A stretch of 64,000 nucleotides of DNA from Myxococcales bacterium (GTDB lineage Bacteria; Myxococcota_A; Polyangia; Palsa-1104; SHYY01), in the NCBI GenBank assembly GCA_009692555.1, contig SHYY01000002.1:19158-83157 (forward strand). Reading direction: 5' to 3'. Under the pieces are notes generated by a model. It saw only the letters and a list, made by a program, of their open reading frames with translations, did not search any database and had not been told where the DNA came from. Every line of letters begins with the position of its first letter. Positions within the stretch are counted from its first letter, which is position 1. Position numbers and translations under genes: made by a program. Of the stretch, positions 6,977 through 28,519 are shown piece by piece.

Positions 6977-7007
6977 CGCGTCCTCCTCGCTCGCCGGACC
7001 CCTCGGG

Positions 7008-8303: not shown

Positions 8304-8396
8304 GGGTGCGGGGACTCGACGGGAAGGCTCCGCCAGAGCGCCCGGTGGTGTCAAGCGCCCCTGGGTTGTGACCAGGGATGTGACACGATTCTCCCG

Positions 8397-10355: not shown

Positions 10356-10434
10356 CGATCCGTCCCGCTGGGCCTCAGCCCGCGCACCCAGGGGACGCGG
10401 TGGCGCCACCTGCGGCGGTTCAATTTGGCTCAGC

Positions 10435-14100: not shown

Positions 14101-15682
14101 CCTCGCCACCGACGAGCACCTCCCCCGGCATCGCCTCCTCGGCGAGGCGGCGCGCTATGCTCCCGACCGGGGCGCACAGCTCGTGCTCGAAGCGCGCGTC
14201 GCCGGTGACCGTGCTCCGCCCGACCAGCGCCGCCCCGGCCTCGACCCCGATCGAGAGGTGCAGCGGCGGGCGGAGATCGCGCACGATCCCGTCGAGTGCG
14301 TCGATCAGCGCCAGCGCGAGCTGGATCGCCCGCGACGGGTCGTCCTCGGCGCCCACCGGCAAGCCGATCAGGTAGGTGAAGCCGCGCTCGTCGAGGCGAT
14401 CGGCATGGGCGTGATGCTTGTATGCGACGTGCTCCGCCACGCGCAGGAAGTCGAGCAGCACGCCGCGCGCGCGCGTTTCGCCGAGCTGCCGACGCAGCGC
14501 CGCGAGCCCGCCGAGCGCCCCCTCGACCACCACCACGTTCTTCCGCTCGCGCGGTCCGGCCACGAGCGGCAGGTGGCCCGCGTCGCCCGAGGTCACCGAC
14601 GCGGTCGGCGTCACCGACGGTCCGGTGGCGAGCTCGTCGTCGTTCGGCTGGGTAGGCGAGGTCTCCTCGGTCGAGGAGGCCACCGCGCGCCGCGCCGCAG
14701 CACGCGCCTCGACTCCGCCGGCCTCCTGCGGCTCTTCCAGCGCGCGGATCCGGTTGCGCTCGGCCTGCGGCACCACCTGCGCGACGAACGCCGCCATCGC
14801 CCCCGACTCGTAGATCTCCCCCTCCTGCGACCCGAGGCTGAAGAAGAACTTGCCGAGCGCCTGCTGGAGATCGCGCGCGGTCTGGAAGCGATCCTCGGCC
14901 CGCCGCGCGAGGGACTTGAGGATGATCCGCTCGAGCTCCTCGGGCAGATCGGGATCGGCGTCGCGCGGGCGCGGCACGAGCGCGCTGCGGATCGCCTCCA
15001 GCGCCTGCCGCTCGCCCATTCGCCCGAACAGCGCGCGCCCGGTGGTGAGCTCGTAGAGGACGATCCCCGCGGCGAAGATGTCCGAGCGCCGGTCGATGGG
15101 GAGGCCCGACGCCTGCTCGGGCGACATGTAGGCGAACTTTCCCTTCACCACCCCTTCGTCGGGCTTCTGCCCGCGCGCCCGCGCGATCCCGAAGTCGACG
15201 ATCTTCACCGCTCCGTCGAAGCTGACCAGGATGTTCTGCGGCGAGACGTCGCGGTGAACGATGTGCAGCGCCTCGCCCGCGTCGTCGGCCTTGCGATGGG
15301 CGTAATCGAGCCCCTTCGCCACCTGCTGCATCACGTAGGCGGCGAGCCCCGGGGGCACCTTGCGGCCGGCGGCGGCGGCGGCGTGGATCAGGCGGAGGAG
15401 ATCGACCCCCTCGACGCGCTCCATCGCCAGGAAGTAGGTGTGCCCGAGCTGCCCGTAGTTGAAGGTCTGGACGATGTTCGGGTGATTCAGGATCACCCCG
15501 ATCTTCGCCTCGTCCTCGAACATCGCGCGGAACTGCGGCGCCTGGGCCAGCCCGGGGTGGATCTTCTTGATCACCAGCACCTTCGAGAGCCCCCCGATGA
15601 GCGGCTCGCGCGCGAGGAACACCTCGGCCATGCCGCCGGCGCCGAGCCGTCGCAAGATCTGGTATTTGCCGAACGGCTCCAC
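11135..15682 (-). CDS. 1515-aa multidomain Ser/Thr kinase: kinase, cyclase-homology-like region, P-loop NTPase (STAND-like), TPR array
   Basis: GAGGMAEVFLA, LVIKKI, HRDVSPQNILV, DFGIAR, SPEQ. Central Walker A GDRGVGKRS. C-terminal repeated A/L-rich TPR-like helices. The 1674-aa plus-strand ORF is its shadow. Confidence 0.93.
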   Translation of the reverse strand: MEPFGKYQILRRLGAGGMAEVFLAREPLIGGLSKVLVIKKIHPGLAQAPQFRAMFEDEAKIGVILNHPNIVQTFNYGQLGHTYFLAMERVEGVDLLRLIHAAAAAGRKVPPGLAAYVMQQVAKGLDYAHRKADDAGEALHIVHRDVSPQNILVSFDGAVKIVDFGIARARGQKPDEGVVKGKFAYMSPEQASGLPIDRRSDIFAAGIVLYELTTGRALFGRMGERQALEAIRSALVPRPRDADPDLPEELERIILKSLARRAEDRFQTARDLQQALGKFFFSLGSQEGEIYESGAMAAFVAQVVPQAERNRIRALEEPQEAGGVEARAAARRAVASSTEETSPTQPNDDELATGPSVTPTASVTSGDAGHLPLVAGPRERKNVVVVEGALGGLAALRRQLGETRARGVLLDFLRVAEHVAYKHHAHADRLDERGFTYLIGLPVGAEDDPSRAIQLALALIDALDGIVRDLRPPLHLSIGVEAGAALVGRSTVTGDARFEHELCAPVGSIARRLAEEAMPGEVLVGGEVFRAARGEWRFEELEAIGLAAQGASPAEAVEPGEPSRVRVFRTLGATPRAERMTAPGSALWGRELELQALEDAARDVATRGQGRFLLAVGDRGVGKRSLVARLWARLDPATHLVLRTVGSLGRRDTPYALTADLARDLLGVGDVAEPRDLKRMIQAGVAELFSGDGGKRVKPITEALALLLGLHVPGADEIDPAERRHRLYQGIRAIGDRLARERTLVLIVEDLHFADTQSFELLLALARDPLPRPVLILATARHEARPPELADTDDGGVEIVIAGTTRAGVPGPETLHEDARIEILLGEPNVSPIFVGELSPRAREGLLRARFERPDDEAVAALIRTTLDRAGGNPFYLNEILESLAERGILAVGESGGFALKRLDTEVAVPLSIEALIGARLDRLPDEERAAVRAAAVLGRIFRAVDLAALLDSVDAAPLIERLTVRGLLVPVEEGPQAAARSTEPRGEFAFRSALAQEIAYGGLAAEVRASFHRRAAERLAGSPSYHRGADDARIAHHLQAAGEPIEAGRAFARAGIHARDVSGNAEAWRHFGQALALFGDQPALRAECWDLHAEREQILRALGQRDDELAEVTVMRRLAEDLGDAGRLARSLARLSSYYLDTGKHAAARRESARARETARAAGDRITEAEALRLDATLLIHIGRYPEALLCTRDALAALGDPEDRAGLLERAQVQSAVGTIERDQGRGQEAARAYGEALAIHRRLGSRRRESATLNNLGNVAISQGDLEQALAHYKHSLKIDQEIGDRVGLGATLGNIGQVHALLGDHDRAHRHLVRALELDEASRDMSALTDASISIGQVDLRRGEIAAAAEHLERGLELAQATRSRYQEIRALVYLAFCKLAAGAPPDLPLDLARSAVKLAREAAIPNGVAFGLIAEGLALARSGRREEAADRSAEAVALCDAGRVDEAEEVLFHHARLAAGAGRSDEAAASLARARAEVRKKAARLRDEQWRSRYLAAPPASEILEDSTPG

Positions 15683-16775: not shown

Positions 16776-18371
16776 TCACGGGCTCTGAGAGCTGGCCATC
16801 GATCGGTCGAGCAGCCAGCGCAGCGCCGCGAGCCGCTCCCGGACCTCGCGCGCCGTCGGGCGGGCCGCAGGATCGCGCGACAGCAACCGATCGACCAGCT
16901 CGCGCACATCGCGGGTGATGACGTGGCCGAGCGACGTGATCACCGAGTCGGGGAGCGCGGCGAGCAGCGTCTCGCCACGCACCAGGGCCGCGCGATCGAA
17001 CGGCGCCGCGCCGGCCAGCATCTCGTGGAGGATCACCCCGACGGCATAGAGGTCCGATGCCGTGGTCGCCTCACCACGCCTCTGCTCGGGCGCCATGTAA
17101 CCGAGGGTGCCGGTGGCCTCGGTGGGCGCGGCGTCGACAAGGTGGGCGAGACCAAAGTCACCCAGGACGAGGTCGCCCTCGGCGAGCGCGGCCAGCGACG
17201 ACGGGAGCGGCCGGAAGAGCAGGTTCCCGGGCTTGATGTCGCGGTGGACGATCCCCGCGCGGTGGACCGCCTCGAGGGTGGTGCACAGCTCCACGCCGCG
17301 CCGAAGCGCCGCCGCCGGGGCCAGCCGCCCGCGCTGGAGGAGATCGCGCAGCGTCCCGCCCGCGCACAGCTCCATCGCCACCAGATTGCGCTCCTCGTCG
17401 AGGTCGTAGATCGCCACCACGCCCGGGTGGCGGAGCGCGGCGGCGATCCGCGCCTCGTTGAACGAGCGCACTCGCGCCTCGGCCCGCGCCCGCGCCGAGG
17501 CGTTCGGGTGGAGCAGCTTGAGCGCCACGTCGCGCTCGAGCTCGAGGTCGCGCGCGAGGTAGACCGCCCCCGCGGCGCCGCGCCCGAGCTCGCGCTTCAG
17601 GCGGTAGCGCGCGCTCACTTCCGGTCCGAGCCCGCCCACGCCGGCGATGGTCTCCGCGGCGGCGGCGGTGTGGGAGGACTCCTGGCGCGGCCGGAGGCGA
17701 TCGGCTCGGCCGCGCGCCTTCGGGTAGTCGATGTCGACGGCGATCACCCGCTCGTAGTCGCGCCGCGCCGCGGCGAGATCGCCCGCCCGCTCGTGGGCCT
17801 CCGCGAGCAGGAAGCGGGCGCGCAGCGCATGCTGCGGCGCAGCAAGAAGGCGCTCCAGGTGCGGGATCGCCGTCTCGTGCTCCAGGCGATCGCAGAGCAG
17901 CTCGACGAGCCGCGCCGCGAGGTCGAGGTCGTCGGGGCGCGCGGCGGCAAAGCGGGCGAGGAGCTCGATCGCGGTGCGCTCGCGGTGGGTGGCGAGGAGG
18001 CGCTCGATCGCCGACCAGAACTCACGACCCCCGAGGACGATCGCGCTCGGAGGCGCCGGCGGGACGGGCGATCCGGCGAGCGGGCTCTGCTCCGGCGCGG
18101 GCCCCACGCGGGCGAGCAGCTGGCGCAGGAAGGCCTCCTCGGCGGGCATCGGCGGCGCCTCCGCGTCGGGAGGACGCGCGGGGGGCGCCTGTGGCCTGCG
18201 CGGCGACGGCGGCTCGGGCGGCCGGAAGGCGCCCTTCACCCGGCTCCAGAACGACTGAGCCTCATCGACCCGCCGAAGGCGGCTCCACAGCGTCCCCTGG
18301 GTCTTCGGGGACGGAGCCTCATCGACCCGCCGAAGGCGGCTCCACAGCGTCCCCTGGGTCTTCGGGGACAT
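16776..18371 (-). CDS. Ser/Thr protein kinase with N-terminal duplicated peptide, Pro-rich linker and TPR-like region; kinase domain is C-terminal
   Basis: Start ATG 18371-18369 overlaps the TGA of the upstream FHA gene by 1 nt. GRGAAGAVYLA, VALKLL, HRDIKPGNLLF, DFGLAH, APEQ. Confidence 0.9.
   Translation of the reverse strand: MSPKTQGTLWSRLRRVDEAPSPKTQGTLWSRLRRVDEAQSFWSRVKGAFRPPEPPSPRRPQAPPARPPDAEAPPMPAEEAFLRQLLARVGPAPEQSPLAGSPVPPAPPSAIVLGGREFWSAIERLLATHRERTAIELLARFAAARPDDLDLAARLVELLCDRLEHETAIPHLERLLAAPQHALRARFLLAEAHERAGDLAAARRDYERVIAVDIDYPKARGRADRLRPRQESSHTAAAAETIAGVGGLGPEVSARYRLKRELGRGAAGAVYLARDLELERDVALKLLHPNASARARAEARVRSFNEARIAAALRHPGVVAIYDLDEERNLVAMELCAGGTLRDLLQRGRLAPAAALRRGVELCTTLEAVHRAGIVHRDIKPGNLLFRPLPSSLAALAEGDLVLGDFGLAHLVDAAPTEATGTLGYMAPEQRRGEATTASDLYAVGVILHEMLAGAAPFDRAALVRGETLLAALPDSVITSLGHVITRDVRELVDRLLSRDPAARPTAREVRERLAALRWLLDRSMASSQSP
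18257..18370. repeat. near-perfect 57-bp tandem duplication (2 copies) at the extreme 5' end of the kinase gene
   Basis: Copies at 18257-18313 and 18314-18370 encode SPKTQGTLWSRLRRVDEA(P/Q) twice, directly after the start codon. Confidence 0.9.
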
Positions 18372-19549
18372 CAGGCCTCCACCTCGACCCGCGCTGGCGC
18401 CTGCTTTGGCTCGCCCACCTCGACGACGTCGCCGCGCAGGAGCTGGATGCGCGCTCCGGCGCGTGCGCCGTTGAGCTGGAGCGGGTGCCCGCCGATCGCA
18501 GAGAGGCAGGGCCGCCCGTCGCTGAAGCGGAGCTCGAAGGCGCCGCCCGCGAGGAGAAAGGGCGTTGCTGCGGCGATCACCTTCAAGCCGCGATCGAGCC
18601 CGCGCGCGACCGTCAGCGTCAGCACGCCGCTCTCGACGCGGAAGCGGATCCCGCACAGCTCCCCCAGGCCAAGCTCGCCCTCCTGGTCCAACGGCAGCTC
18701 GCCACCGACGGCGCAGCCGGCGAGGAAGGTGCCGTTCTTCGACGCGCAGTCGCGCACCCGGAAGCGCCCGCCGGCCTCGAGGATCTCGGCGTGGCGGCGC
18801 GAGATCCCGCCGTCGCGGAGCGCCACCTCGCACGATCCCTCGCGCCCGAGCCCGAGGGGAAACGCGCCGACGTAGGTGGCCCGCTCGGCGCCGATCCGGA
18901 GCGTCACCCGCGACGCGGTGAGCCGCCGCGCCTCGAGCGACTCGATCAGGCGCGCGTACTCACCGACGGGAGATACCTCCATGCAGCCCCGGAGCGCGGC
19001 GAGGGCGCGGTCGCGCTCCCCGGCGGCGAGCCAGCGCTGGTAGTCCTCGAACCCCTCGGAGAGGAGGGTGTCCTTCCGGCGCCGCTTCTCGTCGCGCGCG
19101 AGCACCGCCTCGAGCCGATCCACCTCGCCCGCGCGCTGGTAGCTGTCGGCGGCCTCGCGCTCGTCGCCGGCCAGCTCGTGGCACTCGCCCGCGCCCGCCA
19201 GGTCATCGGCCGCGGTGAAGAGCGCCGCCGCCTCGCGCAGCACCGCGCGATCGGACTCGGAGATCACGCCGCTGGCGCGCACCAGGAGGAGCATCGCGCG
19301 GGCGACGCGCCGCCGGACGTCGCGGTCCACGTCCTGCCCGCCGTCGCTCCAGCGCACCGCGGCGCGCAGCTCGGCGAGGCGCGCTTCGTGTCCTCCTGCG
19401 CGCTCCGCCGCGAGGAGGTGCATCTCGCCCACCTTGTGCCGCTCGCCCGAAAGCGCGTAGGCGCGGGCCGCGTCGCCATAGTCGCCCGCTGCCTCGGCCG
19501 CGAGGGCGCGCCGGAAGTCGGCCGAGAAGACGCGCTTGAAGAACGCCAC
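18371..19549 (-). CDS. FHA domain-containing protein with N-terminal TPR-like helices
   Basis: 392 aa, GTG start 19549. FHA signature GREGSCEVALRDGGISRRHAEI...RVRDCASKNGTFL. Translationally coupled to the downstream kinase. Confidence 0.88.
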   Translation of the reverse strand: MAFFKRVFSADFRRALAAEAAGDYGDAARAYALSGERHKVGEMHLLAAERAGGHEARLAELRAAVRWSDGGQDVDRDVRRRVARAMLLLVRASGVISESDRAVLREAAALFTAADDLAGAGECHELAGDEREAADSYQRAGEVDRLEAVLARDEKRRRKDTLLSEGFEDYQRWLAAGERDRALAALRGCMEVSPVGEYARLIESLEARRLTASRVTLRIGAERATYVGAFPLGLGREGSCEVALRDGGISRRHAEILEAGGRFRVRDCASKNGTFLAGCAVGGELPLDQEGELGLGELCGIRFRVESGVLTLTVARGLDRGLKVIAAATPFLLAGGAFELRFSDGRPCLSAIGGHPLQLNGARAGARIQLLRGDVVEVGEPKQAPARVEVEA

Positions 19550-19555: not shown

Positions 19556-20137
19556 TCACTGCGCCGAGTCGAGCAGCTCCACCTTGTCGTAGATCTCCGC
19601 GAGCGAGAGGTCGACGCCCAGCGAGGAAAGTGTCACCGCCCCTTCGCCCACTCGCTCCGTGAAGAGCCACTCGGGGTGCTCGATCCGGCGGTAAAGCTCC
19701 ACTCGCCGCTCGGCCTGCGCGACCAGCAGGATCTCCTGCAGCGACGGGAGCCTCCGGTAGTGGGCGAACTTGGCGCCGCGATCATAGAGTTCCGTGGAGT
19801 CGGAGAGCACTTCGACCAGCAGGAGCGGGTTGGTCAGCGACAGCGGGTCCCGCGAGTGGTACTTCGCCGGGCCGCAGACGACCGTGACGTCGGGGTAGGT
19901 GTAGAGGCGGGTCTCCGCGATGTGGACGCGCTGATCGCTCCCGAGCGCAAGACAGGGCTTGCCGCGCAGGAGGCCGCGCAGCGCTCCCTGGATATTGCCA
20001 GCGATGAGCGTGTGGCGCGTTGATGCGCCGGCCATCGCGACGATGCGTCCGTTGACGTACTCGTGCTTGTCCTCGCTGCCCCGCTCTCGAGCGAGATACT
20101 CGTCCTCGGTGGCGAGTTCCTGGTGCGCGGCGTCCAT
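19556..20137 (-). CDS. Uma2-family (DUF820, PD-(D/E)XK-like) endonuclease
   Basis: ATG 20137 (MDAAHQELATEDEY...). Family-typical YEL-like N-terminus HEYVNGRIVAM, then PDVTVV and LLVEVLSDST core. Stop lies 6 nt upstream of the FHA start. Confidence 0.85.
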   Translation of the reverse strand: MDAAHQELATEDEYLARERGSEDKHEYVNGRIVAMAGASTRHTLIAGNIQGALRGLLRGKPCLALGSDQRVHIAETRLYTYPDVTVVCGPAKYHSRDPLSLTNPLLLVEVLSDSTELYDRGAKFAHYRRLPSLQEILLVAQAERRVELYRRIEHPEWLFTERVGEGAVTLSSLGVDLSLAEIYDKVELLDSAQ

Positions 20138-20176
20138 TCGCAAAGTCTACCACCGCTGACGGCGACGGCGACGGCA

Positions 20177-20209: not shown

Positions 20210-20238
20210 CGGAAGTGTATATCGTATGCTGCGCGCTG

Positions 20239-21819
20239 ATGCTCGAGCACGTCGCCCTCCACCAGACGCGCTTCAACGCTCCCGGCGTCGCCCCCGATTC
20301 GCGCGGCATCCTCCTCGGCAAGCAGGGCGCGGTGCTGTTCGCGTCGATCGACAAGCTGGTCGGCTTCTTCCGCATCCTCTCCGAGGAGGCGCCGCTCGAC
20401 GACCTCCTCCCGACGCTGAAGCTGCTCCAGGTGAGGACCCCGCTCCAGAGCCGCGAGTTCCTGATCCTGTTCCACGCCGCCTCCTCCTACCTCGTCGACC
20501 GCGCCGCCCGCATCACCACGCTCCTCGGCGGCCTCACCTTCACCGGCTCGGGCAAGCACTACGTGAAGTACCGCGACGAGGGCTCACCGCTCGGCTACGA
20601 CGTGAGCGAGCTGTTCGCCGAGGCGGAGGCCGGCAGCGCCGACTACCTCCTCTACGCCGAGGCCTTCACCCAGGGCTACTCGCGGGTGAAGGAGATCCCG
20701 TTTTCGCAGCTCGTCTTCCGCCTCTCACCGCGCGCCATCCCCGGCGAGGGTCCGCGATCGCGGAGGCGCGGCGCGGCGGTGAAACGGTCCGCGGCGCCGG
20801 ACCGGGCCGCCTCCGGCGAGGCGCTGTGGCTGGTGGTCCGCCCGGGCCTCGGTTCGAGCGTGCTCACCTACCTGTGGCGCAATCGCGTCGAGAGCCACGC
20901 GGCGCTGGTCGAGCGCGAGGGCGCGGGCGGGGCCTTCGGCGGGCGTGAGAAGTATCTGCTCATCCGCGCGCAGAACTTGCCCGGGCGGATGCTCGATCTG
21001 TTCACCGACGTGCCGGGGATCGAGATTCACCGCGCGGTGGGAGAGAACTTCGTCGTCGAGCTGGGCTACCGCCACCCGCTGCGCCTCGAGTCGTGTCAGA
21101 GCGTGTTCGATCGCGAGAAGTTCTACGTCTTCTCCGGACAGCGCGACGCGGTCGACGTGATCGCCGCGGCGGGCGGCCTGCCGCTCACCGCCTCGGAGAA
21201 GCTGATCACGGCCGGCTTCGACCTCGGCGAGCGGAAGGAGCCCACGGCGAACGTGGCCAGCAAGGCGGCCGAGGTGGCGGTGATGCTGCGCCTCGTGCCG
21301 TCGTCGACCCCCCCGCGCAGGGTGAGCGCGACGCTCGTTTCATGGACGCACCTCGACTGGCTGAAGAAGCTGGTCTTCGCCGTTCCACCGCCGGTGCTCA
21401 CCGGCTACCGCGTGGCGCCGGTCGACGACGGGCTCCTGATCACCGGGGCGCGAGGGGTCGACGGTCTGCCGATCGGCGAGCTGTTCCAGGAGGCCGCGCC
21501 CTCGATCTACATCCCGGTCGGCTTCGAGTTCCTGCCGCGGATCTCCGAGTCGGTGCTGACCGATCACGTCGGCGGCGTGGGCGGGCGCGTGGTGCTGTTC
21601 CGGCGCGGCTCGGCGGCACCCTTCGCGGTCGCGGAGTCCGACTTCGAGCCCCTCGGTCGCCGCATGCTCGGCCGCCTCGAGATCGAGACCCGCCCGCGCA
21701 GCACACGAGCCGCCGTTCCCCGCCCTCCCGCCGACACGCTGGTCCAGAACGAGCCGCTCGGCGCGCTGCCACTGTGGGGTTTCCAGGGCGGCGAGATCCC
21801 CGAAGCGGGCGACGAGTAG
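20239..21819 (+). CDS. hypothetical protein (about 527 aa), no family recognised
   Basis: Long ORF with balanced, non-shadow composition (K, F, Y, I present). Start uncertain (GTG 20215 or ATG 20239). No catalytic motif seen. Confidence 0.7.
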   Translation: MLEHVALHQTRFNAPGVAPDSRGILLGKQGAVLFASIDKLVGFFRILSEEAPLDDLLPTLKLLQVRTPLQSREFLILFHAASSYLVDRAARITTLLGGLTFTGSGKHYVKYRDEGSPLGYDVSELFAEAEAGSADYLLYAEAFTQGYSRVKEIPFSQLVFRLSPRAIPGEGPRSRRRGAAVKRSAAPDRAASGEALWLVVRPGLGSSVLTYLWRNRVESHAALVEREGAGGAFGGREKYLLIRAQNLPGRMLDLFTDVPGIEIHRAVGENFVVELGYRHPLRLESCQSVFDREKFYVFSGQRDAVDVIAAAGGLPLTASEKLITAGFDLGERKEPTANVASKAAEVAVMLRLVPSSTPPRRVSATLVSWTHLDWLKKLVFAVPPPVLTGYRVAPVDDGLLITGARGVDGLPIGELFQEAAPSIYIPVGFEFLPRISESVLTDHVGGVGGRVVLFRRGSAAPFAVAESDFEPLGRRMLGRLEIETRPRSTRAAVPRPPADTLVQNEPLGALPLWGFQGGEIPEAGDE

Positions 21820-21824
21820 GGCGC

Positions 21825-22949
21825 GTGAGCCGCGGCGGTTTCGTCGAGTCGTTCCTCCTCCCGCTCGTCGCCGGAGGGGTGGCCCACGTCGGTGCGCCGC
21901 TCGGACTGGCCGGGCTCGCACGGCTGCGCGCGCTGAAGGTCGATCCGGGCCTCGCCGCCGAGGTGTTCGCGGCACGCTCGGCGGTCGCGAGCGAGCTGCT
22001 CTACGATCCGATCCCACCGCAGCTCGATCTCCCGTCGCTGCGCCTCGCGATCGCGGTGCACGATCTGCTGTTCCTGTTCCATCCTGGCGCGGCCGGACTG
22101 GCGGTGCGCGGCAAGAGGATCGCCGAGGTGGCGCGCTTCGCCGCGGCGCTGGCCGCTCTCCCCGCCACCACCGATGACGACATGCTGGTCGCGCGCCACA
22201 CCATCCTCCATCTGGTTCCCGGCCTCGGACGGACGGATGTGCGCGTGTCGTTCTGGGCGGGTAGGCGCGAGTTCCATGGCGAGGAGCCGCCCCGCCGCCT
22301 CACCGCCTGGCCGAACATGCGGCGGGTGCACGAGGAGCGCTGGCGGGTCGGCTGCTTCGCCGAGGCGGCCTCGCACGCGCAGGGCGGCGAGGTGGTGCGC
22401 GCCCTCCTCGACGCCAGCCCGCTCACCGATCTCCTGAACCCGGTGCGGATCGAGCCGCGCCTCGTTCTCGGCAGTCGCCGCGCTGTGCTCGCGAGGCCCG
22501 CGCTCTGCCGCCTGGTCATCTACGCCTGGCTCGACGGTGGAATCGACCGGGTCGGGGGCGCGCTGGCGACCGCGGCGATCGCCGAGCTCGACGGGCGGGA
22601 GCCGGAGGTGGGCCGCTTCGTGTGCGCCCTGATCGCCCATCTGCACCTCTGCACAATCCTCGCGCCGACGGCGCAAGTGCCGACCCGCGAGCGCCGCCCG
22701 GCGCCGCGGATCCTGGTGGGGACCGACCTCGCCCTGCGCGACTTCTACGGCCTCTTTGCCGCGCTCCACCGCGCGATCCCCAGGCTGGCTGCGCCGGCGG
22801 ATGTGCATCGGGATCCACGCCTCGGGCCGAGGGTGGCCGAGCACGCAGCGGCCTGCGCCCTGGCCTGCGGCGAGCTGCGCGTCGGTGAGCTCGCGGCGCT
22901 GGTGGCGCGAACCGGGGGCCCGATCGCCCTCTCGAACGCCCTCCCTTGA
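21825..22949 (+). CDS. hypothetical protein (374 aa), mostly helical, no family recognised
   Basis: GTG 21825 lies 5 nt after the stop of the upstream gene. Only the last 374 codons of the 618-aa track ORF look coding. Confidence 0.6.
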   Translation: MSRGGFVESFLLPLVAGGVAHVGAPLGLAGLARLRALKVDPGLAAEVFAARSAVASELLYDPIPPQLDLPSLRLAIAVHDLLFLFHPGAAGLAVRGKRIAEVARFAAALAALPATTDDDMLVARHTILHLVPGLGRTDVRVSFWAGRREFHGEEPPRRLTAWPNMRRVHEERWRVGCFAEAASHAQGGEVVRALLDASPLTDLLNPVRIEPRLVLGSRRAVLARPALCRLVIYAWLDGGIDRVGGALATAAIAELDGREPEVGRFVCALIAHLHLCTILAPTAQVPTRERRPAPRILVGTDLALRDFYGLFAALHRAIPRLAAPADVHRDPRLGPRVAEHAAACALACGELRVGELAALVARTGGPIALSNALP

Positions 22950-23059
22950 TGGCAAGTAACGTATTGTCACATAAGTCAAAATGATGGAAAGGCGGTTACG
23001 TACAATCTCTGTGATTGATATTATACATCTTGCAAATTGATGAAAAGAGCATATCGGCC
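22950..23059 (+). promoter_or_regulatory. AT-rich island upstream of the Fic gene (candidate promoter or foreign-DNA junction)
   Basis: gtaacgtattgtcacataagtcaaaatgatgg...gattgatattatacatcttgcaaattgatgaaaag is far more AT-rich than any other stretch of comparable length I noticed in the window. No confident -35/-10 assignment. Confidence 0.35.
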
Positions 23060-24187
23060 ATGATTTTCCAGGTGCCCAGGCTCGACGCCAGAGAGCTCGA
23101 GATCAGCGACCGGATCGAGGAGCTGAAGCAGCGCCTCGGCTATGCCACCCGGGCGCCCGCGCGACGCTGGCAAGGTCTGCTCCGCCGCAACTCGTTCGCG
23201 AACGCGATCCGCGGCTCGAACAGCATCGAGGGCTACAACGTCTCGGTCGACGATGCGGTGGCGGCCGCCGAGGGCGCGGAGCCCCGCGATGCCTCCGCTG
23301 ACACCTGGGCCGCGATCACCGGTTATCGAGCAGCGATGACCTATGTCCTGGAGCTGGCTGACGATCCGCATTTCTCGTTCTCGACCGATCTGCTGAGATC
23401 GCTGCATTTCATGATGATCCAGGCCGATCTCACCAGGCACCCGGGGCGATGGCGGCCAGGACCCATTTTCGTTCACGACGATCAGACCGACAGGACCCTC
23501 TACGAGGGGCCGCCCGCCGAGGACGTGCCGGCGATGGCGGCCGAGCTTGCCCTGGCGCTCAACCGGAAATCCGAGGAGCCGGTGACGGTGCGGGCGGCGA
23601 TGGCGCACTTGAACCTGGTGATGATCCACCCGTTCTCCGACGGCAACGGACGGATGGCGCGGTGCCTCCAGACGCTGGTCCTGGCGCGGGCCGGGACGCT
23701 CGCGCCGATGTTCTGCAGCATCGAGGAGTACCTCGGCAAGAACACGCAGAGCTACTACGACGTGCTTGGTGAGGTCGGCGGCGGCGCATGGCACCCGGAG
23801 CGCGATGCGAGGCCGTGGGTCCGATTCTGCCTCGCGGCTCACTTCCGCCAGGCGAGCACGCTGCTCCGTCGCTCGCGCGAGATGAGCCGGTTGTGGGAGG
23901 TGGCGGATCGCGAGCTCCGGAAGCGCGGCCTGCCGGAGCGAATGGTCGTGGCGTTCGTCGATGCGGCCATGGGCTTCCAGGTCCGCAACGCCACCTACCG
24001 CTGCGCAGCGGAGGTCTCCGATCAGGTCGCCGGGCGCGACCTCCGGCAGCTTGCGGTGGAGGGCTTTCTCGAGGCCGTCGGCGAGCGGCGCGGGCGCTAC
24101 TACAAGGCGTCGAGGCGCCTCGCGCAGCTGTTTGCCGGCCTTCGTGAGCCAAAGCAGACCGAAGATCCGTTCGCCGATCGTCTGTGA
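23060..24187 (+). CDS. Fic-family protein (AMPylase-type) with intrinsic inhibitory helix and C-terminal wHTH-like region
   Basis: Active-site HPFSDGNGRMAR. N-terminal SNSIEG fits the [ST]xxxE[GN] inhibitory motif. Start ATG 23060 (MIFQVPRLD). Confidence 0.9.
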   Translation: MIFQVPRLDARELEISDRIEELKQRLGYATRAPARRWQGLLRRNSFANAIRGSNSIEGYNVSVDDAVAAAEGAEPRDASADTWAAITGYRAAMTYVLELADDPHFSFSTDLLRSLHFMMIQADLTRHPGRWRPGPIFVHDDQTDRTLYEGPPAEDVPAMAAELALALNRKSEEPVTVRAAMAHLNLVMIHPFSDGNGRMARCLQTLVLARAGTLAPMFCSIEEYLGKNTQSYYDVLGEVGGGAWHPERDARPWVRFCLAAHFRQASTLLRRSREMSRLWEVADRELRKRGLPERMVVAFVDAAMGFQVRNATYRCAAEVSDQVAGRDLRQLAVEGFLEAVGERRGRYYKASRRLAQLFAGLREPKQTEDPFADRL

Positions 24188-24355
24188 GGTCCGGAGGCGC
24201 CGTCTGCGTGTCCTCGGTGCAAGCCGCTTGCGAGCACACGAGGAGACACCCGATGCGCCACCTGCTGATCGCCTTGACCGCTCCTCGAACGCAGGTAGCC
24301 ACCGCAGGGCAATCGAGTTCCCGTGGCGAGGTTCTGCGGTACACTGCCGCGCGCC

Positions 24356-25645
24356 ATGGAGAAGCCGCCTCCCGTCCCCGTGCCGCTGACCCCCGCCGTC
24401 CGCACCGATCCTGCGCCAGCGACGCCGGCAATAGCCGGCGTGCAGCAAGCTCGGAGCGCAACGGCGCGCCCTCCCGCCACCTCCTCGCCCGCGATCGCCG
24501 TGCGCCTCCAGGAGGCGGCGCGGGTGATGGAGCAGCACTTCCTCGACAAGCAGGAGATCATCCGCCTCCTGCTCATCTCCACCGTCGCTGGCGAGCACAT
24601 GGTCCTGGTGGGGCCGCCCGGCACCGCCAAGAGCGCGCTGGTGCGCCTGTTCGCCCGGCTCGTCGACGCGAAGTACTTCGAGTACCTCCTCACCCGCTTC
24701 ACCGAGCCGAACGAGCTGTTCGGGCCGGTCGATATCCGTGCCTTCCGGGAGGGGGTCTACACCCGCCGCACCGAGACCATGCTCCCCGAGGCGGAGATCG
24801 TCTTCCTCGACGAGATCTTCAAGTCGAACTCGGCGATCCTGAACTCGCTGCTGACGATCGTCAACGAGCGCACCTTCTCCAACGGGTCGAAGGTGATGAA
24901 GGTGCCGCTGCTCTCGATGTTCGGCGCCTCGAACGAGGTCCCGAACGACGAGAACCTCGCGGCGATCTTCGACCGCTTCCTGATCCGCGTCGCGTCCGAC
25001 AACCTCGACGGCTACCACTTCCACAACCTCGTCTCGCGCGGCCTCGCGACGGAGACGGCGAAGATCACCGGGCGCGAGGATCAGATCAAGCCGCTCCTCT
25101 CGGCGCGCGATCTCCACGAGCTGCACCGCCGCTTCGATCAGCACCTCCAGTTCAGCGAGGACTTCCTCTCGAAGTACAAGGGGATGATCTTCCAGATCCG
25201 ATCGGAGGGGATCTCGGTCTCCGATCGGCGGGTGGTGAAGCTGCTCAAGCTCTTCGCCGCGTCGGCGGTGGTCGACGGACGCCAGCAGGCGAACGACTCC
25301 GACTTCTTCATCCTCCGGCACATCTGGAACAACCTCGACCAGACCGAGATCCTCGACGAGATCGTGAAGCCGGTGGTCGATCGCTACTTCCGAGATCATC
25401 CGGATGCGCGCCGCTTCACCGCCGGCGGCGCAGGCCTCGACGAGATCCTCGCCGAGCTGAAGATCATCCGCGAGGTGCTGACCTCGGGCGAGCAGCTCTC
25501 CGACATCCAGCTCTTCTCGCAGCTGAAGAACCTGAACGAGATCAAGGCGGCGCTCCAGGCGGTCGACTCCGAGACCGCGCGCCGGATGATCGGCGAGATC
25601 GACGCGCTGCTCGAGAACCTCTTCGCGTCGTCGAAGTTCGGCTAG
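24356..25645 (+). CDS. RavA/MoxR-type AAA+ ATPase with Pro/Ala-rich N-terminal extension
   Basis: Walker A GPPGTAKS, Walker B IVFLDEIFK, and FEYLLTRFTEPNELFGP plus LNSLLTIVNERTFSNG, which closely parallel my recollection of E. coli RavA. Start ATG 24356 (alternative GTG 24323). Confidence 0.88.
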   Translation: MEKPPPVPVPLTPAVRTDPAPATPAIAGVQQARSATARPPATSSPAIAVRLQEAARVMEQHFLDKQEIIRLLLISTVAGEHMVLVGPPGTAKSALVRLFARLVDAKYFEYLLTRFTEPNELFGPVDIRAFREGVYTRRTETMLPEAEIVFLDEIFKSNSAILNSLLTIVNERTFSNGSKVMKVPLLSMFGASNEVPNDENLAAIFDRFLIRVASDNLDGYHFHNLVSRGLATETAKITGREDQIKPLLSARDLHELHRRFDQHLQFSEDFLSKYKGMIFQIRSEGISVSDRRVVKLLKLFAASAVVDGRQQANDSDFFILRHIWNNLDQTEILDEIVKPVVDRYFRDHPDARRFTAGGAGLDEILAELKIIREVLTSGEQLSDIQLFSQLKNLNEIKAALQAVDSETARRMIGEIDALLENLFASSKFG

Positions 25646-25657
25646 GTCGCCCGCCCG

Positions 25658-26613
25658 ATGATCGATCAGGCCCGCCTCGACCGCATCCACCTCCATCCGC
25701 GGCCGTGGGGACAGCGCCTGCTCGGCTGGCTCTTCCTGCGGCCGAACTTCCGCATCTTCCGTCGCACCCGCATCCTCCTCGAAGGGCGCGAGCACCTCCC
25801 GCGCGGCGGCGGGGCGATCCTGGTCATGAACCACACCGACCGCTACAATATACTGGCCCCTCCAGTACCAGCTGTGGCGCGAGAACCTCGGCTTCACGGC
25901 AACCTGGGTAAAGGGGAAATACTACGAAAACGCGGCGCTGGCCTGGTTCATGGACGCCTGCAACAACATCCCGGTGCCGTCCCCGGGGCTACCTCCTCAC
26001 CAAGGACTTCCAGCGCGCGCTCGGCCGGGTGCCGAGCGACCTGGAGTACGGCTTCCTGAAGCGCCTCTGCGACGGGGCGATCGACGAGCAGGCCGCCCGG
26101 AAGGACGGTGGCGAGGGAATCGCGGCGCTGCTCGGGAGCGGCTTCACCGCGGCGGCGCTCGAGGCGCGTTTCAAGGCGATGATGCGGCGGGTGGTGGCGA
26201 TCAATCGCGAGGGGCTGGCGATGGGGCTCAACCTCCTCATCTTTCCGCAGGGCACCCGCTCGATCCGCCTCACCCGCGGCCACACCGGCGCCGCGCAGGT
26301 GGCGCTCCATACCGGCGCGCCGGTGATCCCGATCGGCTGCAACGGCTCCGACCAGCTCTACCCGGGCAACTCGCCGTGGAGCCGGAGCGGCACCGTCCGC
26401 TACCGGATCGGCGAGCCGCTCACCGTCGACAATGCGCTCCGTCCGTTCGCGATCGACCAGCCCTTCACGCCCTTCACCCGCGACGCCGAGCGCCACGAGC
26501 CGACGTTCCGCAAGCTCACCGATCTGCTGATGGATCGCATCGACGCGCTGCTCGATCCGCCCTACCGCTACGGCGACGTCACCGAGGGCAAGGGAGCCAG
26601 CCGCTTCGTCTGA
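25658..26613 (+). pseudogene. PlsC-family lysophospholipid acyltransferase interrupted by two +1 frameshifts
   Basis: Frame 1 gives ...ILVMNHTDRYN. Frame 2 gives YWPLQYQLWRENLGFTATWVKGKYYENAALAWFMDACNNIPVPS. Frame 3 gives RGYLLTKDFQ...LLIFPQGTRS...PVIPIG. Shifts lie near 25850 (AATATAC) and 25981-25988 (CCCCGGGG). Confidence 0.8.
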
Positions 26614-26633: not shown

Positions 26634-27197
26634 ATGCGGCACATCGCCGTCGCGCTCGGGTTCCTCGCCGCCCTCACCGGCTGCAAGGTCGACAAGCTCT
26701 CTTCGCGGGGAAAGACGCCGCCCGCGCCGGCGAACGGCTCGTCGCTGACGCAGCGTTTCGGATCGCCGAACAAGCGGATCACCGCCCGCTACCCGGCCGA
26801 CTTCGCGGCGAGCGTCCCGCCGAACACCAACGCGGTCATCCTCGCCCGCAACCTCCCGGGCGGCAGCGACGAGGCGGTCTCGCTCCTGCCGATCGAGAAC
26901 CCGGTGTCGCACGCGCTCGAGGAGTTCGCGCGGATCGTCCACAACGCCTCGACGGGCACGCTCCACAAGTGGCAGCAGACCTCGATCCGCCGCACCCCCT
27001 GCAACGGAATGCCAGGCGTCGAGATCACCGGGACCTGGGTCGACGAGAAGTCGGGCGGCGTCCTGTTTCGCCGCGCCTGCGCGTTCGTGCGCAACCGCCA
27101 CGGCTACTGCTTCGGCTACTCGGCGCCGCAGGGCGTGGCTCTCGAGCACATGCCGCTCCTGCAGGCGATCGTGGAGGCCACCGAGTTCGGGGACTGA
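26634..27197 (+). CDS. hypothetical lipoprotein
   Basis: Lipobox LAALTGC, 187 aa. Confidence 0.75.
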   Translation: MRHIAVALGFLAALTGCKVDKLSSRGKTPPAPANGSSLTQRFGSPNKRITARYPADFAASVPPNTNAVILARNLPGGSDEAVSLLPIENPVSHALEEFARIVHNASTGTLHKWQQTSIRRTPCNGMPGVEITGTWVDEKSGGVLFRRACAFVRNRHGYCFGYSAPQGVALEHMPLLQAIVEATEFGD

Positions 27198-27268: not shown

Positions 27269-28519
27269 ATGGGCCTGTCGCCGAGAGTGCTGGTGGTTGG
27301 GATGCTCCTCCTCGGCGCTTCTGCGCCCGTTTTGGCAAAGCCCGCCGGGACGGCGAAGGACGGAGGTCCCCTGGCGCAGGCCAAGGCCCATTTCCTGAAG
27401 GGGCGCGAGGCCTACGAGGCCGGCGACTACATCGCGGCGATCCGCGAGTTCCAGGCGGCGCAGGCGCTCTCGCCGTCGCCGCTGCTCGACTACAACATCG
27501 GGCTCGCGCAGGAGCAGTTCGGCGACCGGAAACAGGCGGTGGCGCACTACCGCGCCTACCTCGAGGCGAAGCCCGACGCGACCAACCGCCCCGACGTCGA
27601 GCAGCGCATCGCGGCGCTCGATCCGGCCCCGCCACCGACGGTCGATCCGGTGCCCGAGCCGCCCCCGGTGAGGCGGCCCGATCAACCGCAAAGGCCCCGG
27701 CCCGAGATCCAGTGTCCCGCCGGACAGACGGTCACCGAGGACACCGCCGACCACTGCTGCTGGGGCGGGCAGGTGTGGTCGAAGCGACGCGCGGCTTGCG
27801 CCGGGATCCCGCAGTGCCCGGCCGGGCTCCAGGTGAGCGGCGAGACCTGCATCAAGGCGGTGGCGCCGCTCCCGCCGCTCGACATGGATCCGTGGGCGAT
27901 CACGCCCACTCCGCGGGCCGGCCCGCCGCCGCCGACCTACGCGCCTCGCCCGGTGGGAGCGCCCGGGACGGTGCAGGTGACCTTCACGCCGAAGCGCCGC
28001 GAGTTCATCTACGTGATCACCGCGGGCAAGCAGTCCTGCGCCACGCCCTGCTCGCTCTTCCTCAAGCCGGGCTCGGCGAAGATCGGGATCACCGGGGCCG
28101 GGGAGTTCAGCGCTCGCTTCACCGTCCCGACCACAGCGACGGTGGTGGAGGTGCAGCACCGCCGGATCGGATCGCTCGTCGCCGGGTCGATCCTGGTGTT
28201 CTTCGGCACCGTGGCGGCGATCTCGGGAACCGTGCTCGTCGCGCCCGGCCCGAGCAAGAGCTGCAGCGATCCGCCGGACTGCAGCACCGAGGTCAACAAC
28301 CCGAACTTCGCCTACGGGGTGGTGGCGTTCCTCGCATCGGCGGTGCTGCTCCCGATCGGGATCCCGACGATGTCGAAGATGGACGCGAACGAGATCTCGC
28401 TCCACAGCGGCACCACGGCCCGTGCGCCCGATCCGGGCCCGGGCAACGTTCGTCTCATCGGTGCGGGGCTCGGCGCCTGGCAGGGCGGCGCGGGCGCAAG
28501 CCTCCGCTTCGCCTTCTAG
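27269..28519 (+). CDS. secreted TPR-containing protein with Cys-rich middle, PEGA-like segment and C-terminal TM segments
   Basis: Start ATG 27269 (MGLSPRVLVVGMLLLGASAPVLA). TPR-like YEAGDYIAAIREFQAAQAL...AVAHYRAYL. Confidence 0.75.
   Translation: MGLSPRVLVVGMLLLGASAPVLAKPAGTAKDGGPLAQAKAHFLKGREAYEAGDYIAAIREFQAAQALSPSPLLDYNIGLAQEQFGDRKQAVAHYRAYLEAKPDATNRPDVEQRIAALDPAPPPTVDPVPEPPPVRRPDQPQRPRPEIQCPAGQTVTEDTADHCCWGGQVWSKRRAACAGIPQCPAGLQVSGETCIKAVAPLPPLDMDPWAITPTPRAGPPPPTYAPRPVGAPGTVQVTFTPKRREFIYVITAGKQSCATPCSLFLKPGSAKIGITGAGEFSARFTVPTTATVVEVQHRRIGSLVAGSILVFFGTVAAISGTVLVAPGPSKSCSDPPDCSTEVNNPNFAYGVVAFLASAVLLPIGIPTMSKMDANEISLHSGTTARAPDPGPGNVRLIGAGLGAWQGGAGASLRFAF

Follow-up and report, generated by a model that had tools for sequence, protein, structure and literature searches.

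A composite locus in a Myxococcales genome: probably a conserved A-B-MoxR trio with an unrelated Fic insertion

Genes and features of the locus

The window, as used here, is the whole 64-kb stretch of Myxococcales DNA that was analysed. In a first-pass annotation, its block 20215-25645 was described as four co-directional plus-strand genes, bounded upstream by a Uma2 gene and followed by a decayed acyltransferase. GC3 frame analysis confirms the four genes and their common direction, a Pfam match places the Uma2 gene on the minus strand at 19556-20143, and the acyltransferase is indeed broken up over three reading frames. The features are, in order of position:

Stop at 16776, true start probably near 18370, minus strand: Ser/Thr kinase with TPR (Pfam Pkinase, 1.5e-41)
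18371-19549, minus strand: FHA-domain protein (Pfam FHA, 4.5e-13)
19556-20143, minus strand: Uma2, putative restriction endonuclease fold (Pfam Uma2, 6.1e-32)
20239-21819, plus strand: gene A, distant fvmX7/bpX2_N member by Pfam, 526 aa, alpha+beta, first of the trio
21825-22949, plus strand: gene B, undescribed family, 374 aa, mostly helical, second of the trio
22950-23059, plus strand: AT-rich putative promoter/leader of Fic, GC 0.37, with a candidate extended -10-like element
23060-24187, plus strand: solitary class II (SoFic-like) Fic AMP-transferase (Pfam Fic, PADLOC SoFic)
24188-24330, plus strand: right-hand end of the inserted DNA, featureless, unalignable to the spacers of relatives
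24340-24345, plus strand: -10-like box TACACT (part of GGTAnACT), 10 nt ahead of the MoxR ATG
24356-25645, plus strand: bpMoxR-type AAA+ ATPase, third of the trio (Pfam bpMoxR, AAA_5, AAA_lid_8)
25658-26613, plus strand: frameshifted PlsC-type acyltransferase pseudogene, motifs in three frames
26634-27197, plus strand: lipoprotein with lipobox LTGC, following the acyltransferase pseudogene
27269-28519, plus strand: TPR protein, probably membrane-anchored (TPR profile matches)

The longest open reading frame of gene A begins at 20215, and the ATG at 20239 agrees with the 'MLE.VAL.QTRF' start of its homologues. Neither A nor B had been credited with an assignable motif, which holds for B and not for A, as A scores 36.5 bits against the Pfam family fvmX7 (3.9e-9, cut-off 24 bits), next to a match to bpX2 (0.0012) that lies under the bpX2 cut-off. 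I found 241 homologues of A, all from Polyangia/Myxococcales wherever the source gives an organism, and 155 relatives among the GTDB species genomes. The AlphaFold model (pLDDT 82.7) consists of beta-alpha-beta-beta-alpha-beta modules in series, for which Foldseek returned nothing at E<=1e-3; the weak top matches are ferredoxin-, ACT- and ABM-like, with no vWA fold among them. Together with a probability of 0.2% from hhalign against a vWA profile, this rules out gene A as a cryptic vWA.

Gene B starts 5 bp past the end of A and has no match in Pfam, NCBIfam or PADLOC, nor in a sequence search of the PDB. Across 37 members of its family, no Pfam E-value falls below 0.02 and no Pfam family is matched by more than two members, and its AlphaFold model (pLDDT 91.7, pTM 0.88) gave no Foldseek match at E<=1e-3 against PDB and BFVD. 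The family amounts to 593 clusters at 50% identity, and as the best 150 of these are 129-453 aa long, there are no fusions to larger proteins among them. Invariant residues are H86, P87, R124, H125, R136, D138 and W144. For B, too, a cryptic vWA is rejected by structure and profile comparison. The profile and structure searches proposed earlier for the two proteins accordingly place A as a distant fvmX7 protein and leave B without a relative in Pfam or the PDB.

The longest open reading frame of the ATPase begins at 24323, the called start being 24356. It had been taken for a RavA/MoxR-type enzyme, of which the MoxR class stands and the RavA label does not: bpMoxR fits better (1.4e-77, with AAA_5 at 1.5e-28 and AAA_lid_8 at 5.7e-12), whereas NCBIfam RavA gives 195 bits over RavA residues 6-301, the cut-off of 681 bits being far above. 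Both the P-loop GPPGTAKS and the Walker B motif VFLDEIF are kept, and the former fits GXXXTAKS, a variant that Kaur et al. 2020 (PMC7159879) note in ternary systems with FtsH or a beta-propeller. It was from the NTP-dependent conflict systems of that paper, of the MoxR-vWA 'ternary' type, that the families bpMoxR and fvmX7/bpX2 were defined. Among the systems catalogued there, the FtsH and beta-propeller types are relatives of the cassette, which itself has no FtsH and no beta-propeller component. The earlier suggestion of an NTP-dependent conflict module can be kept for A, B and MoxR through these Pfam families, and not for the Fic gene.

The A-B-MoxR trio and its missing partners

For comparison I used 83 independent A-bearing loci from Myxococcota, restricting each count to loci that are long enough. 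Gene B follows A in 74 of 75 such loci and MoxR follows A-B in 53 of 54; gene calls and Pfam give the order fvmX7 - unknown - bpMoxR in L001, L003, L006, L007, L098 and the P0129 locus. Relatives have in common an upstream flank (STK-AAA16-TPR, a methyltransferase-like gene, kinase, FHA) as well as a downstream flank (RF-1-domain gene, HisRS, SerRS), which argues for vertical inheritance. The trio thus appears to open a chromosomal cassette that Polyangia-type Myxococcota have inherited vertically, and conserved synteny with housekeeping genes gives this cassette little resemblance to a mobile defence island.

The kinase and FHA genes run divergently to gene A. Of 66 related loci in which 3 kb or more lies upstream of A, 18 have this pair as its immediate upstream neighbours, and all 18 come from the Polyangia-like subset nearest to the window. 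Uma2 is found at the FHA/A junction of no other related locus; A adjoins the FHA gene directly in L003, L007, L008 and others, and L074 is the sole locus with a Uma2 gene after MoxR. With a GC content of 0.65-0.68, versus 0.72-0.77 for the FHA and kinase genes, Uma2 seems to be a lineage-specific addition. On the other side of the trio, the acyltransferase is spread over frame 0 (VMNHTDRYN), frame 1 (its middle) and frame 2 (FPQGTR...PVIPIG), and the Pfam match covers profile positions 81-131 of 132 only. As judged from L098, which lacks it and has the lipoprotein gene directly after MoxR, this pseudogene is apparently another insertion, placed downstream of MoxR and ahead of the next conserved gene.

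The full cassette in relatives reads A - B - MoxR - (receiver domain) - divergent vWA - TPR/HEAT. Neighbour clustering detects a protein of ~500 aa after MoxR in 45 of the 55 loci with enough downstream sequence, and a TPR/HEAT protein of ~600 aa in 42 of the 55. The former has an invariant DxSxS motif, THG instead of TDG, weak Pfam matches (ivWA in 22 of 32 members, VWA_2 in 23 of 32) and the TRAP vWA domain as top PDB match, features which point to a divergent vWA. That the ATPase lacks a vWA partner, as the first-pass annotation had it, is correct for the 64-kb window; given the 45 relatives, however, the absence appears to be a derived loss in the sub-lineage of the window rather than a family trait. 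Neither the vWA nor the TPR/HEAT gene has a match or a remnant in the window, which extends 38 kb downstream of MoxR, in L001 (21.5 kb) or in L098 (10.8 kb), and both are absent from the P0129 locus; these three loci are the closest relatives of the window, and 'vWA-less' is meant here at the level of the locus. The two genes directly after MoxR in L098 share 49% and 48% identity with the lipoprotein and the TPR protein of the window, which in this sub-lineage seem to stand where relatives have vWA and TPR/HEAT. The lipoprotein was itself discarded as a vWA candidate (hhalign probability 0.1%).

The vWA and TPR/HEAT genes could instead have been relocated elsewhere in the genome, with the system working as in relatives. 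I consider this possible, if somewhat doubtful: the constraint on the trio equals that in vWA-bearing relatives, several Kofleriaceae loci have the vWA 3-7 kb from MoxR with unrelated genes in between, and the search covered 64 kb of the genome, but the searches of the window, L001 and L098 came out empty and the position after MoxR is taken by two other conserved genes.

Between the window and L001, A and B have dN/dS values of 0.40 and 0.42, and MoxR, whose orthologues are 84-87% identical, has 0.15-0.20; vWA-bearing pairs at equal divergence show similar values. The trio thus appears to be still under purifying selection. The insertions of Uma2 and Fic, the frameshifted acyltransferase and the missing vWA and TPR/HEAT genes might give the impression of a decaying, non-functional remnant, left after the loss of these partners and three insertions. 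I hold this to be very unlikely, as all three open reading frames are intact, every family-invariant residue is kept in A, B and MoxR, the Walker A and B motifs are present in MoxR, the dN/dS range of 0.15-0.42 is that of vWA-bearing pairs, and the trio is kept in four vWA-less loci (window, L001, L098, P0129) despite 59-75% identity in A or B.

The Fic gene and its probable insertion site

The Fic protein matches Pfam Fic (6.9e-16) and PADLOC SoFic (3.4e-46, covering 33-358 of the 361 profile positions), and the closest solved structure is 8uqu (1.1e-21), with SoFic 3eqx/3zcn at about 6e-10. The two motifs reported for it earlier are both present in the sequence, the active site as IHPFSDGNGRMAR / HPFSDGNGRMAR and the inhibitory motif as GSNSIEG (SNSIEG). 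Its best non-identical homologues share at most 68% identity, the named ones coming from Gemmatimonadota and Thermoanaerobaculia; homologues in other phyla are solitary and sit in unrelated contexts, in L088 for example within the rplS-trmD-rimM-rpsP operon. The Fic gene is absent at all 83 related cassette loci. The proposed comparison of synteny across Myxococcota therefore keeps A, B and MoxR together as neighbours and removes Fic from the four-gene module. Fic has a coding GC of 0.68 and a GC3 of 0.85, a slight drop from the host genes (GC3 of 0.93-0.94 in A and MoxR), so composition alone is no proof of recent transfer. By its distribution, Fic appears to be a horizontally acquired, self-contained insertion in the B/MoxR spacer of this lineage only.

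The AT-rich stretch noticed before at 22950-23059 is substantiated by windowed GC: of all 110-nt windows in the 64 kb, 22958-23067 has the lowest GC with 0.35, the next lowest value is 0.52, and the mean is 0.706 (sd 0.051). It has no Rfam match and its RNA fold is not better than that of shuffles (z = +0.92). A two-hexamer promoter scan left it unflagged; an extended -10-like element, TGATATTAT, can be read by eye at 23016-23024. At loci of Fic homologues the upstream GC is under the locus average in 10 out of 10, several having TTGACA/TATAAT-like boxes, and the stretch probably belongs to the Fic gene as its own promoter/leader.

At the other border, 24188-24330 is not alignable with the B-MoxR spacers of L098, L001 and L003, alignment picking up again some 25 nt ahead of the MoxR start codon, and no direct or inverted repeats flank the insertion. 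The spacer measures 37-73 nt in these three loci versus 1406 nt in the window, and exceeds 400 nt in 20 of 65 other loci. Spacer genes elsewhere (sigma factor, DegV, NUDIX, LysR, MAPEG, ADH, lysyl oxidase, LTD) are unrelated and mostly on the opposite strand. A GTAnAnT-type element occurs 8-13 nt before the start codon in L001, L003, L010-L014, L024, L098 and the window, and the conserved box at 24340-24345 is likely a promoter of MoxR's own; promoter calls at this locus are made at the consensus level, the two-hexamer scan having flagged none there. A promoter of its own, as seems to lie just upstream of the MoxR start codon, would explain why the Fic insertion is tolerated.

The four genes share one direction, and no plus-strand terminator-like site separates them; the systems from which the MoxR family was defined are said to recruit diverse effectors; this lineage is without the vWA and TPR/HEAT genes; and SoFic-like proteins are a family with reported anti-phage activity. 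From this one could argue for a single module with Fic as the effector under MoxR, A and B, or, as a variant, for Fic as a substitute for the vWA and TPR/HEAT arm after its loss. However, Fic is found in 0 of 83 related loci, the loss of vWA is older than and independent of the gain of Fic (L001, L098 and the P0129 locus are without both), the homologues of other phyla stand alone, each with its own AT-rich upstream region, and plainly unrelated genes fill the same spacer in other lineages, all of which makes a single module highly improbable. That the Fic junctions are an assembly chimera, as might be suspected for a window that derives from a MAG and has no detectable insertion scars, can practically be dismissed, because the B-Fic junction recurs in the Logan contig L004 and the full order B-Fic-MoxR-acyltransferase in a 9.6-kb ENA contig from a different pipeline.

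Proposed working of the cassette

I thus read the block 20215-25645, with a probability of roughly 0.8, as composite, a conserved A-B-MoxR trio plus an unrelated Fic insertion, and the adjacency of Fic and MoxR as coincidental. For the cassette I would propose remodelling of an A/B complex by MoxR, a mechanism drawn from general knowledge of MoxR-vWA systems (PMC7159879). A MoxR hexamer would spend ATP on a complex containing A and B; in relatives this would go via the vWA adaptor and a TPR/HEAT scaffold, and in the window MoxR would either draw on a vWA from another part of the genome or do without one. The complex would probably act near the cell envelope, and the neighbouring Ser/Thr kinase and FHA proteins may control it. 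Fic, expressed from its own promoter, would be an independently acting toxin or defence protein that AMPylates and is autoinhibited. Ternary MoxR-vWA systems are described as acquiring varied effectors (Kaur et al. 2020, PMC7159879), so that by sequence a secondary functional link with Fic may still exist. The locus as a whole is a reduced variant of a catalogued MoxR system, combined with ordinary horizontal gene transfer.

The flagged block and its Fic gene

The first-pass annotation of 20215-25645 described four plus-strand genes, an AT-rich gap before the third of them, and the motifs of a Fic protein and an ATPase, all of which are present. The gene calls below take third-position GC into account.

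Features of the flagged block
20239-21819, plus strand: gene A
21825-22949, plus strand: gene B
23060-24187, plus strand: Fic gene
24340-24345, plus strand: putative -10-like box of the MoxR gene, GGTAnACT type, common to Polyangia-type loci
24356-25645, plus strand: AAA+ ATPase gene (MoxR)

The GC content of the window is about 71%, and numerous long overlapping open reading frames on both strands were rejected as genes, being high-GC artefacts. At 6591-10409, each strand has one very long open reading frame (1254 aa and 1133 aa), and both contain real domains: a kinase on the plus strand (about 8547-9282) and a trypsin-PDZ protease on the minus strand (about 7307-8033). These are two divergent genes with frames over-extended through high GC, not overlapping genes. 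The 110-bp gap preceding the Fic gene has a GC fraction of 0.37, and the lowest 110-nt value of the entire 64 kb lies in it (0.35; mean 0.706, standard deviation 0.051, next lowest 0.52).

The Fic protein carries the catalytic motif HPFSDGNGRMAR, which fits HxFx(D/E)GNGRxxR (Pfam Fic, 6.9e-16), and an inhibitory SNSIEG motif of the (S/T)xxxE(G/N) type, N-terminal to the core and separated from the catalytic His by some 125 residues. As an inhibitory motif N-terminal to the Fic core defines class II (PMC12249575), the protein is an ordinary new member of that family. It resembles SoFic, a class II Fic that forms a single-gene anti-phage system (PMC12249575), in both motifs and in being encoded by a solitary gene, and its C-terminal domain aligns through to the end of 8uqu. 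Two SoFic models give diverging scores: the PADLOC model is matched over its full length (3.4e-46, profile positions 33-358 of 361), the NCBIfam equivalog with 45.5 bits (cut-off 550). The protein is only distantly related to the Shewanella SoFic (E about 6e-10). Unlike the E. coli case with the small downstream antitoxin AS1, no AS1-like open reading frame was seen after the Fic gene, and inspection of 24188-24355 by eye showed no closed small open reading frame.

I show that the Fic gene is an insertion of foreign origin between B and the MoxR gene. It is found in none of the 83 related loci, and the spacer between B and MoxR, 37-73 nt in the related Myxococcota loci L001 (assembly GCA_037025245.1), L003 and L098, measures 1406 nt in the window. 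After B, similarity between the window and L098 does not resume until some 25 nt ahead of the MoxR ATG; GTACACTGCCGCGCGCCATGG is identical in both. More than 7800 Fic homologues exist, the best non-identical ones reaching at most 68% identity, and the named ones among the best come from Gemmatimonadota and Thermoanaerobaculia. In three long contigs the homologues are solitary in unrelated surroundings with no MoxR gene nearby, and one homologue lies near Uma2 and PhdYeFM genes. Neither target-site duplications nor terminal inverted repeats turned up next to the insert, where the short repeats are at chance level only. An assembly chimera is ruled out, as two other assembly pipelines produced contigs with the same arrangement.

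In one of the three long contigs with Fic homologues (L088, 4185-7711), a 66% identical homologue with an AT-rich upstream region of 435 bp lies antisense between rplS and trmD, the insertion point being the conserved ribosomal rpsP-rimM-trmD-rplS operon.

The regions upstream of Fic homologues have a GC content below that of their own locus in all ten loci compared (the metagenome scan for Fic relatives yielded seven loci), and I therefore read the AT-rich stretch as the promoter and leader of the Fic gene itself. These upstream regions often have clear TTGACA/TATAAT-like boxes. In the window, an extended -10-like TGATATTAT at 23016-23024 was read by eye only, and a sigma-70 two-hexamer scan did not flag the stretch. 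A structured RNA was rejected, since the stretch has no Rfam match and folds no better than shuffled sequences.

Among 65 other loci, 20 have a B-MoxR spacer of more than 400 nt, holding unrelated and mostly antisense genes (a sigma-70 factor, DegV, NUDIX, LysR, MAPEG, alcohol dehydrogenase, lysyl oxidase, LTD proteins). The idea that this spacer is a slot for variable effectors was rejected, as the genes found in it elsewhere are ordinary and mostly antisense. At the junction between the FHA gene and A, the window has a Uma2 gene (PF05685, 6.1e-32, profile positions 2-164 of 172), and none of the relatives has one there. A PlsC-type acyltransferase (25658-26613, plus strand) begins 13 bp past the end of the MoxR gene, and its parts are spread over three frames, NHTDRYN in one, the middle segment in another and FPQGTR...PVIPIG in the remaining one. 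Either two frameshifts have made it a pseudogene or its sequence contains two assembly errors, and it is absent from the MoxR-lipoprotein junction of L098. Both Uma2 and the acyltransferase were gained by the window lineage at neighbouring junctions. In a further close relative (the P0129 locus, JGI 3300047160), four genes, for a TonB-dependent receptor Plug, XusB, an unknown protein and an MFS transporter, separate the FHA gene from A, and B is separated from MoxR by two small genes. The FHA-A and B-MoxR junctions are recurrent insertion points.

The conserved genes A, B and MoxR

The ATPase is of the bpMoxR type (Pfam PF20030, 1.4e-77, 259.9 bits with a cut-off of 27), with the P-loop GPPGTAKS, a GXXXTAKS variant, and the Walker B motif VFLDEIF. 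It had been likened to E. coli RavA, and its AAA+ core and lid indeed align to RavA residues 6-301 (2.7e-57), but it falls outside the RavA-ViaA system by its score (195 bits against NCBIfam PRK13531, equivalog cut-off 681), by its C-terminal region, as the match ends ahead of RavA residues 302-498 of 498, and by its gene context, which differs and has no adjacent ViaA-type vWA gene. A GGTAnACT element, -10-like and located 8-13 nt 5' of the MoxR start, occurs in the window and in L001, L003, L010-L014, L024 and L098, which suggests a putative promoter of MoxR's own that would give a nearly leaderless mRNA. Such a promoter may be why insertions between B and MoxR are tolerated.

Protein A matches Pfam fvmX7 (PF20005, 'FtsH ternary system domain X7') with 3.9e-9 and 36.5 bits (cut-off 24) over profile positions 93-387 of 421, and many of its homologues carry a precomputed fvmX7 match; a match to bpX2 / bpX2_N (Pfam) is weak. 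Its AlphaFold model (pLDDT 82.7) is a string of beta-alpha-beta-beta-alpha-beta modules, for which the best Foldseek matches, all weak, are ferredoxin-, ACT- and ABM-like folds. For B, nothing matched in Pfam, NCBIfam, PADLOC or PDB. Its AlphaFold model (pLDDT 91.7, pTM 0.88) is mostly helical with one small sheet and has no Foldseek match at E<=1e-3 in PDB or BFVD. The B family, with invariant His, His, Asp and Arg residues, comprises 593 clusters at 50% identity, and the best 150 of these 593 have lengths of 129-453 aa and include no fusion to a larger protein. A confident predicted fold, at least 593 clusters and no PDB match make B a worthwhile target for structure determination. PADLOC returned no match for A, B or MoxR. 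That A or B could be a cryptic vWA was ruled out by Foldseek against PDB, by the order of secondary structures and by hhalign against the vWA profile of the relatives (probability 0.2% each).

Homologue searches returned 241 sequences for A and 40 for B, often on the same contigs, and those with a named source carry Polyangia, Myxococcales or other Myxococcota labels. Searching the GTDB species genomes with a profile of A gave 155 relatives, of which 80 were retrieved; nearly all have Myxococcota or older delta-/Proteobacteria names, with Polyangia, Kofleriaceae, Haliangiales and Nannocystineae among the labels. I annotated 83 independent A-bearing loci with six-frame HMM searches and took each count over the loci that were long enough. 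B follows A in 74 of 75 loci, MoxR is present in 53 of 54, and an FHA protein and a Ser/Thr kinase are encoded divergently from A, as in the window, in 18 of 66; these counts agree with gene tables bearing precomputed Pfam labels.

The window and its nearest relatives share their flanks, with a 1500-aa kinase-AAA16-TPR protein and a methyltransferase-like gene upstream, and an RF-1-domain gene, HisRS and SerRS downstream. I therefore regard the cassette as a vertically inherited chromosomal neighbourhood and not as a mobile island. In the window the kinase-AAA_16-TPR (MalT-like) protein is a 1515-aa Ser/Thr kinase at 11135-15682 (minus strand), and it has the same relative position in L003, L007, L010, L011, L014, L016 and L024. 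In the Kofleriaceae loci (L028-L082), another conserved set upstream of A replaces the FHA and kinase pair, namely a co-directional OmpA-like protein of 190 aa right before A, a divergent TPR-like protein of 510 aa and a histidine-phosphatase-family gene.

The vWA and TPR/HEAT arm

Clustering of neighbouring genes revealed two further conserved genes after MoxR in the relatives. Among 55 more distant loci whose downstream sequence extends to 3 kb or more, a protein of about 500 aa is found in 45 and a TPR/HEAT protein of about 600 aa in 42. The former has a helical N-terminal region, an invariant DxSxS and, in the L008-L087 loci, THG for TDG with an invariant His instead of the second MIDAS Asp. 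Its Pfam matches are weak (ivWA in 22 and VWA_2 in 23 of 32 members), and its best PDB match is the vWA domain of TRAP, aligned over both motifs. It is a very divergent vWA that Pfam misses at normal thresholds. With these two proteins following MoxR, the cassette of the family reads A - B - MoxR - (receiver) - vWA - TPR/HEAT, and a Haliangium ochraceum MAG (L072) carries it in full.

The window lacks this arm. Neither vWA and TPR/HEAT genes nor remnants of them were found in the whole 64 kb, in L001 or in L098, and both genes are absent from the P0129 locus as well, so that the earlier description of the ATPase as partner-less holds for the window locus. This absence reflects a derived loss in one sub-lineage. 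In the window and L098, MoxR is followed by genes for a lipoprotein and then a TPR protein that is probably membrane-anchored, and these may substitute for the vWA and TPR/HEAT arm. The lipoprotein (26634-27197, plus strand, lipobox LTGC) is 49% identical to its L098 counterpart. The TPR protein (27269-28519, plus strand), which is rich in Cys in its middle part and has a C-terminal hydrophobic segment resembling a membrane anchor, is 48% identical to its own; both counterparts lie at 3216-4888 of L098, directly after MoxR. The lipoprotein was also considered as a stand-alone vWA remnant, and this was rejected.

Between the window and L001, A and B have dN/dS values of 0.40 and 0.42 and MoxR one of 0.15-0.20, ratios that are comparative only, as dS is compressed by extreme GC3. 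Pairs of vWA-bearing loci at equal divergence give similar values; relaxed selection following the loss of the vWA is not seen in this comparison, and the trio is not decaying.

Relation to ternary systems and possible function

Kaur, Burroughs, Iyer and Aravind (eLife 2020, PMC7159879) predicted from sequence a set of MoxR-vWA 'ternary' conflict systems, and the Pfam families bpMoxR, fvmX7 and bpX2 stem from that work, although the names bpX2 and fvmX7 are absent from its text. My literature search on the family names found only that paper, and no experimental study of MoxR-vWA ternary systems was found. The GXXXTAKS P-loop is common to the FtsH and beta-propeller subtypes (PMC7159879).

The simple type of FtsH ternary system consists of MoxR, an 'ivWA' with a helical N-terminus and a vWA domain, and a double-AAA+ FtsH (PMC7159879). 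The locus resembles it in the GXXXTAKS P-loop of MoxR, in a gene A that scores above the fvmX7 cut-off, in the vWA of the relatives, whose N-terminal region is long and helical, whose divergent MIDAS is one aspartate short and whose matches to Pfam ivWA and ivWA-helical_N are weak, and in its occurrence in social, multicellular deltaproteobacteria. In contrast to the FtsH type, neither the window nor any of about 80 related loci carries a gene for an FtsH-type AAA+ protein, the cassette is not adjoined by a NEFF1 or radical-SAM/peptide effector, the window locus is without even the vWA, and the cassette lies in conserved chromosomal synteny and is not sporadic. Specifically, no FtsH-type AAA+ was found among the Pfam-scanned window genes within about 10 kb on each side, in four fully listed loci or in the scanned representatives of neighbour clusters, and the Walker A pattern G[PA]PG[TCS]GK[TS] occurs in no called gene of 84 loci.

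Likeness to the beta-propeller ternary systems (PMC7159879, subsystem 4) lies in bpMoxR being the best Pfam match of the ATPase and in the weak bpX2_N match of A, in accessory proteins (alpha-helical and alpha+beta) whose folds are unknown, in the lack of a conventional effector, and in hints of a membrane or envelope association (the lipoprotein and TPR protein of the window, the OmpA-like gene of the Kofleriaceae). However, the defining fusion of vWA and C-terminal beta-propeller is absent from the window, which has no vWA, and no propeller family was detected in the vWA of the relatives. The third component of that type is a TPR and beta-propeller protein with a variable N-terminus and a TM segment, and the window has a probably membrane-anchored TPR protein. 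No propeller was found in the scanned cluster representatives of the relatives, where the third protein is TPR and HEAT, and none was detected in the window TPR protein or in the TPR and HEAT protein of the relatives. The cassette lacks the hallmark of each described class, the FtsH component and the vWA-beta-propeller, and shares the MoxR type and an accessory domain with them. I regard it as a variant of a kind described by computation alone, vertically inherited beside housekeeping genes across one myxobacterial class.

The first-pass annotation tentatively read the four genes as an NTP-dependent conflict or regulatory module. The family affinity of A, B and MoxR to bpMoxR and fvmX7 speaks for this idea as far as the trio is concerned; the Fic gene, found in none of the related loci, has to be taken out of it, and the class-wide vertical inheritance of the cassette sits uneasily with a role in defence. 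In a GC-rich genome, genes that follow one another on the same strand need not form an operon, and the Fic finding is itself ordinary. Most likely the Fic protein acts alone, as an autoinhibited AMPylating toxin or defence protein of the kind reported for SoFic.

From what is generally known of MoxR-vWA pairs, the MoxR hexamer would remodel a complex containing A and B, normally by way of the vWA adaptor and a TPR/HEAT scaffold. The envelope-associated neighbours suggest a site of action near the envelope, and the kinase and FHA protein encoded next to the cassette hint at phospho-regulation. How MoxR would work in the window lineage can be read in two ways. A vWA encoded elsewhere in the genome could serve it, which I consider a real possibility, at somewhat worse than even odds. 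Alternatively, the trio could operate autonomously, with no vWA adaptor at all, and the whole Polyangia-wide cassette could be a vertically inherited, envelope-near remodelling system gated by kinase and FHA protein, not a conflict system; I put the chance of this at roughly one in four. The role of the adaptor would then fall to A, with its multiple ferredoxin/ACT-like modules, or to the helical B.

If the vWA-independent reading is true, no MoxR-class ATPase before this one would have been shown to do without a vWA, and calling the FtsH and beta-propeller ternary families 'conflict' systems would come into question. The trio, on which selection has continued since the locus lost its vWA, provides a natural test of MoxR function without a vWA adaptor, and the same sub-lineage also tests whether ternary systems really serve defence.
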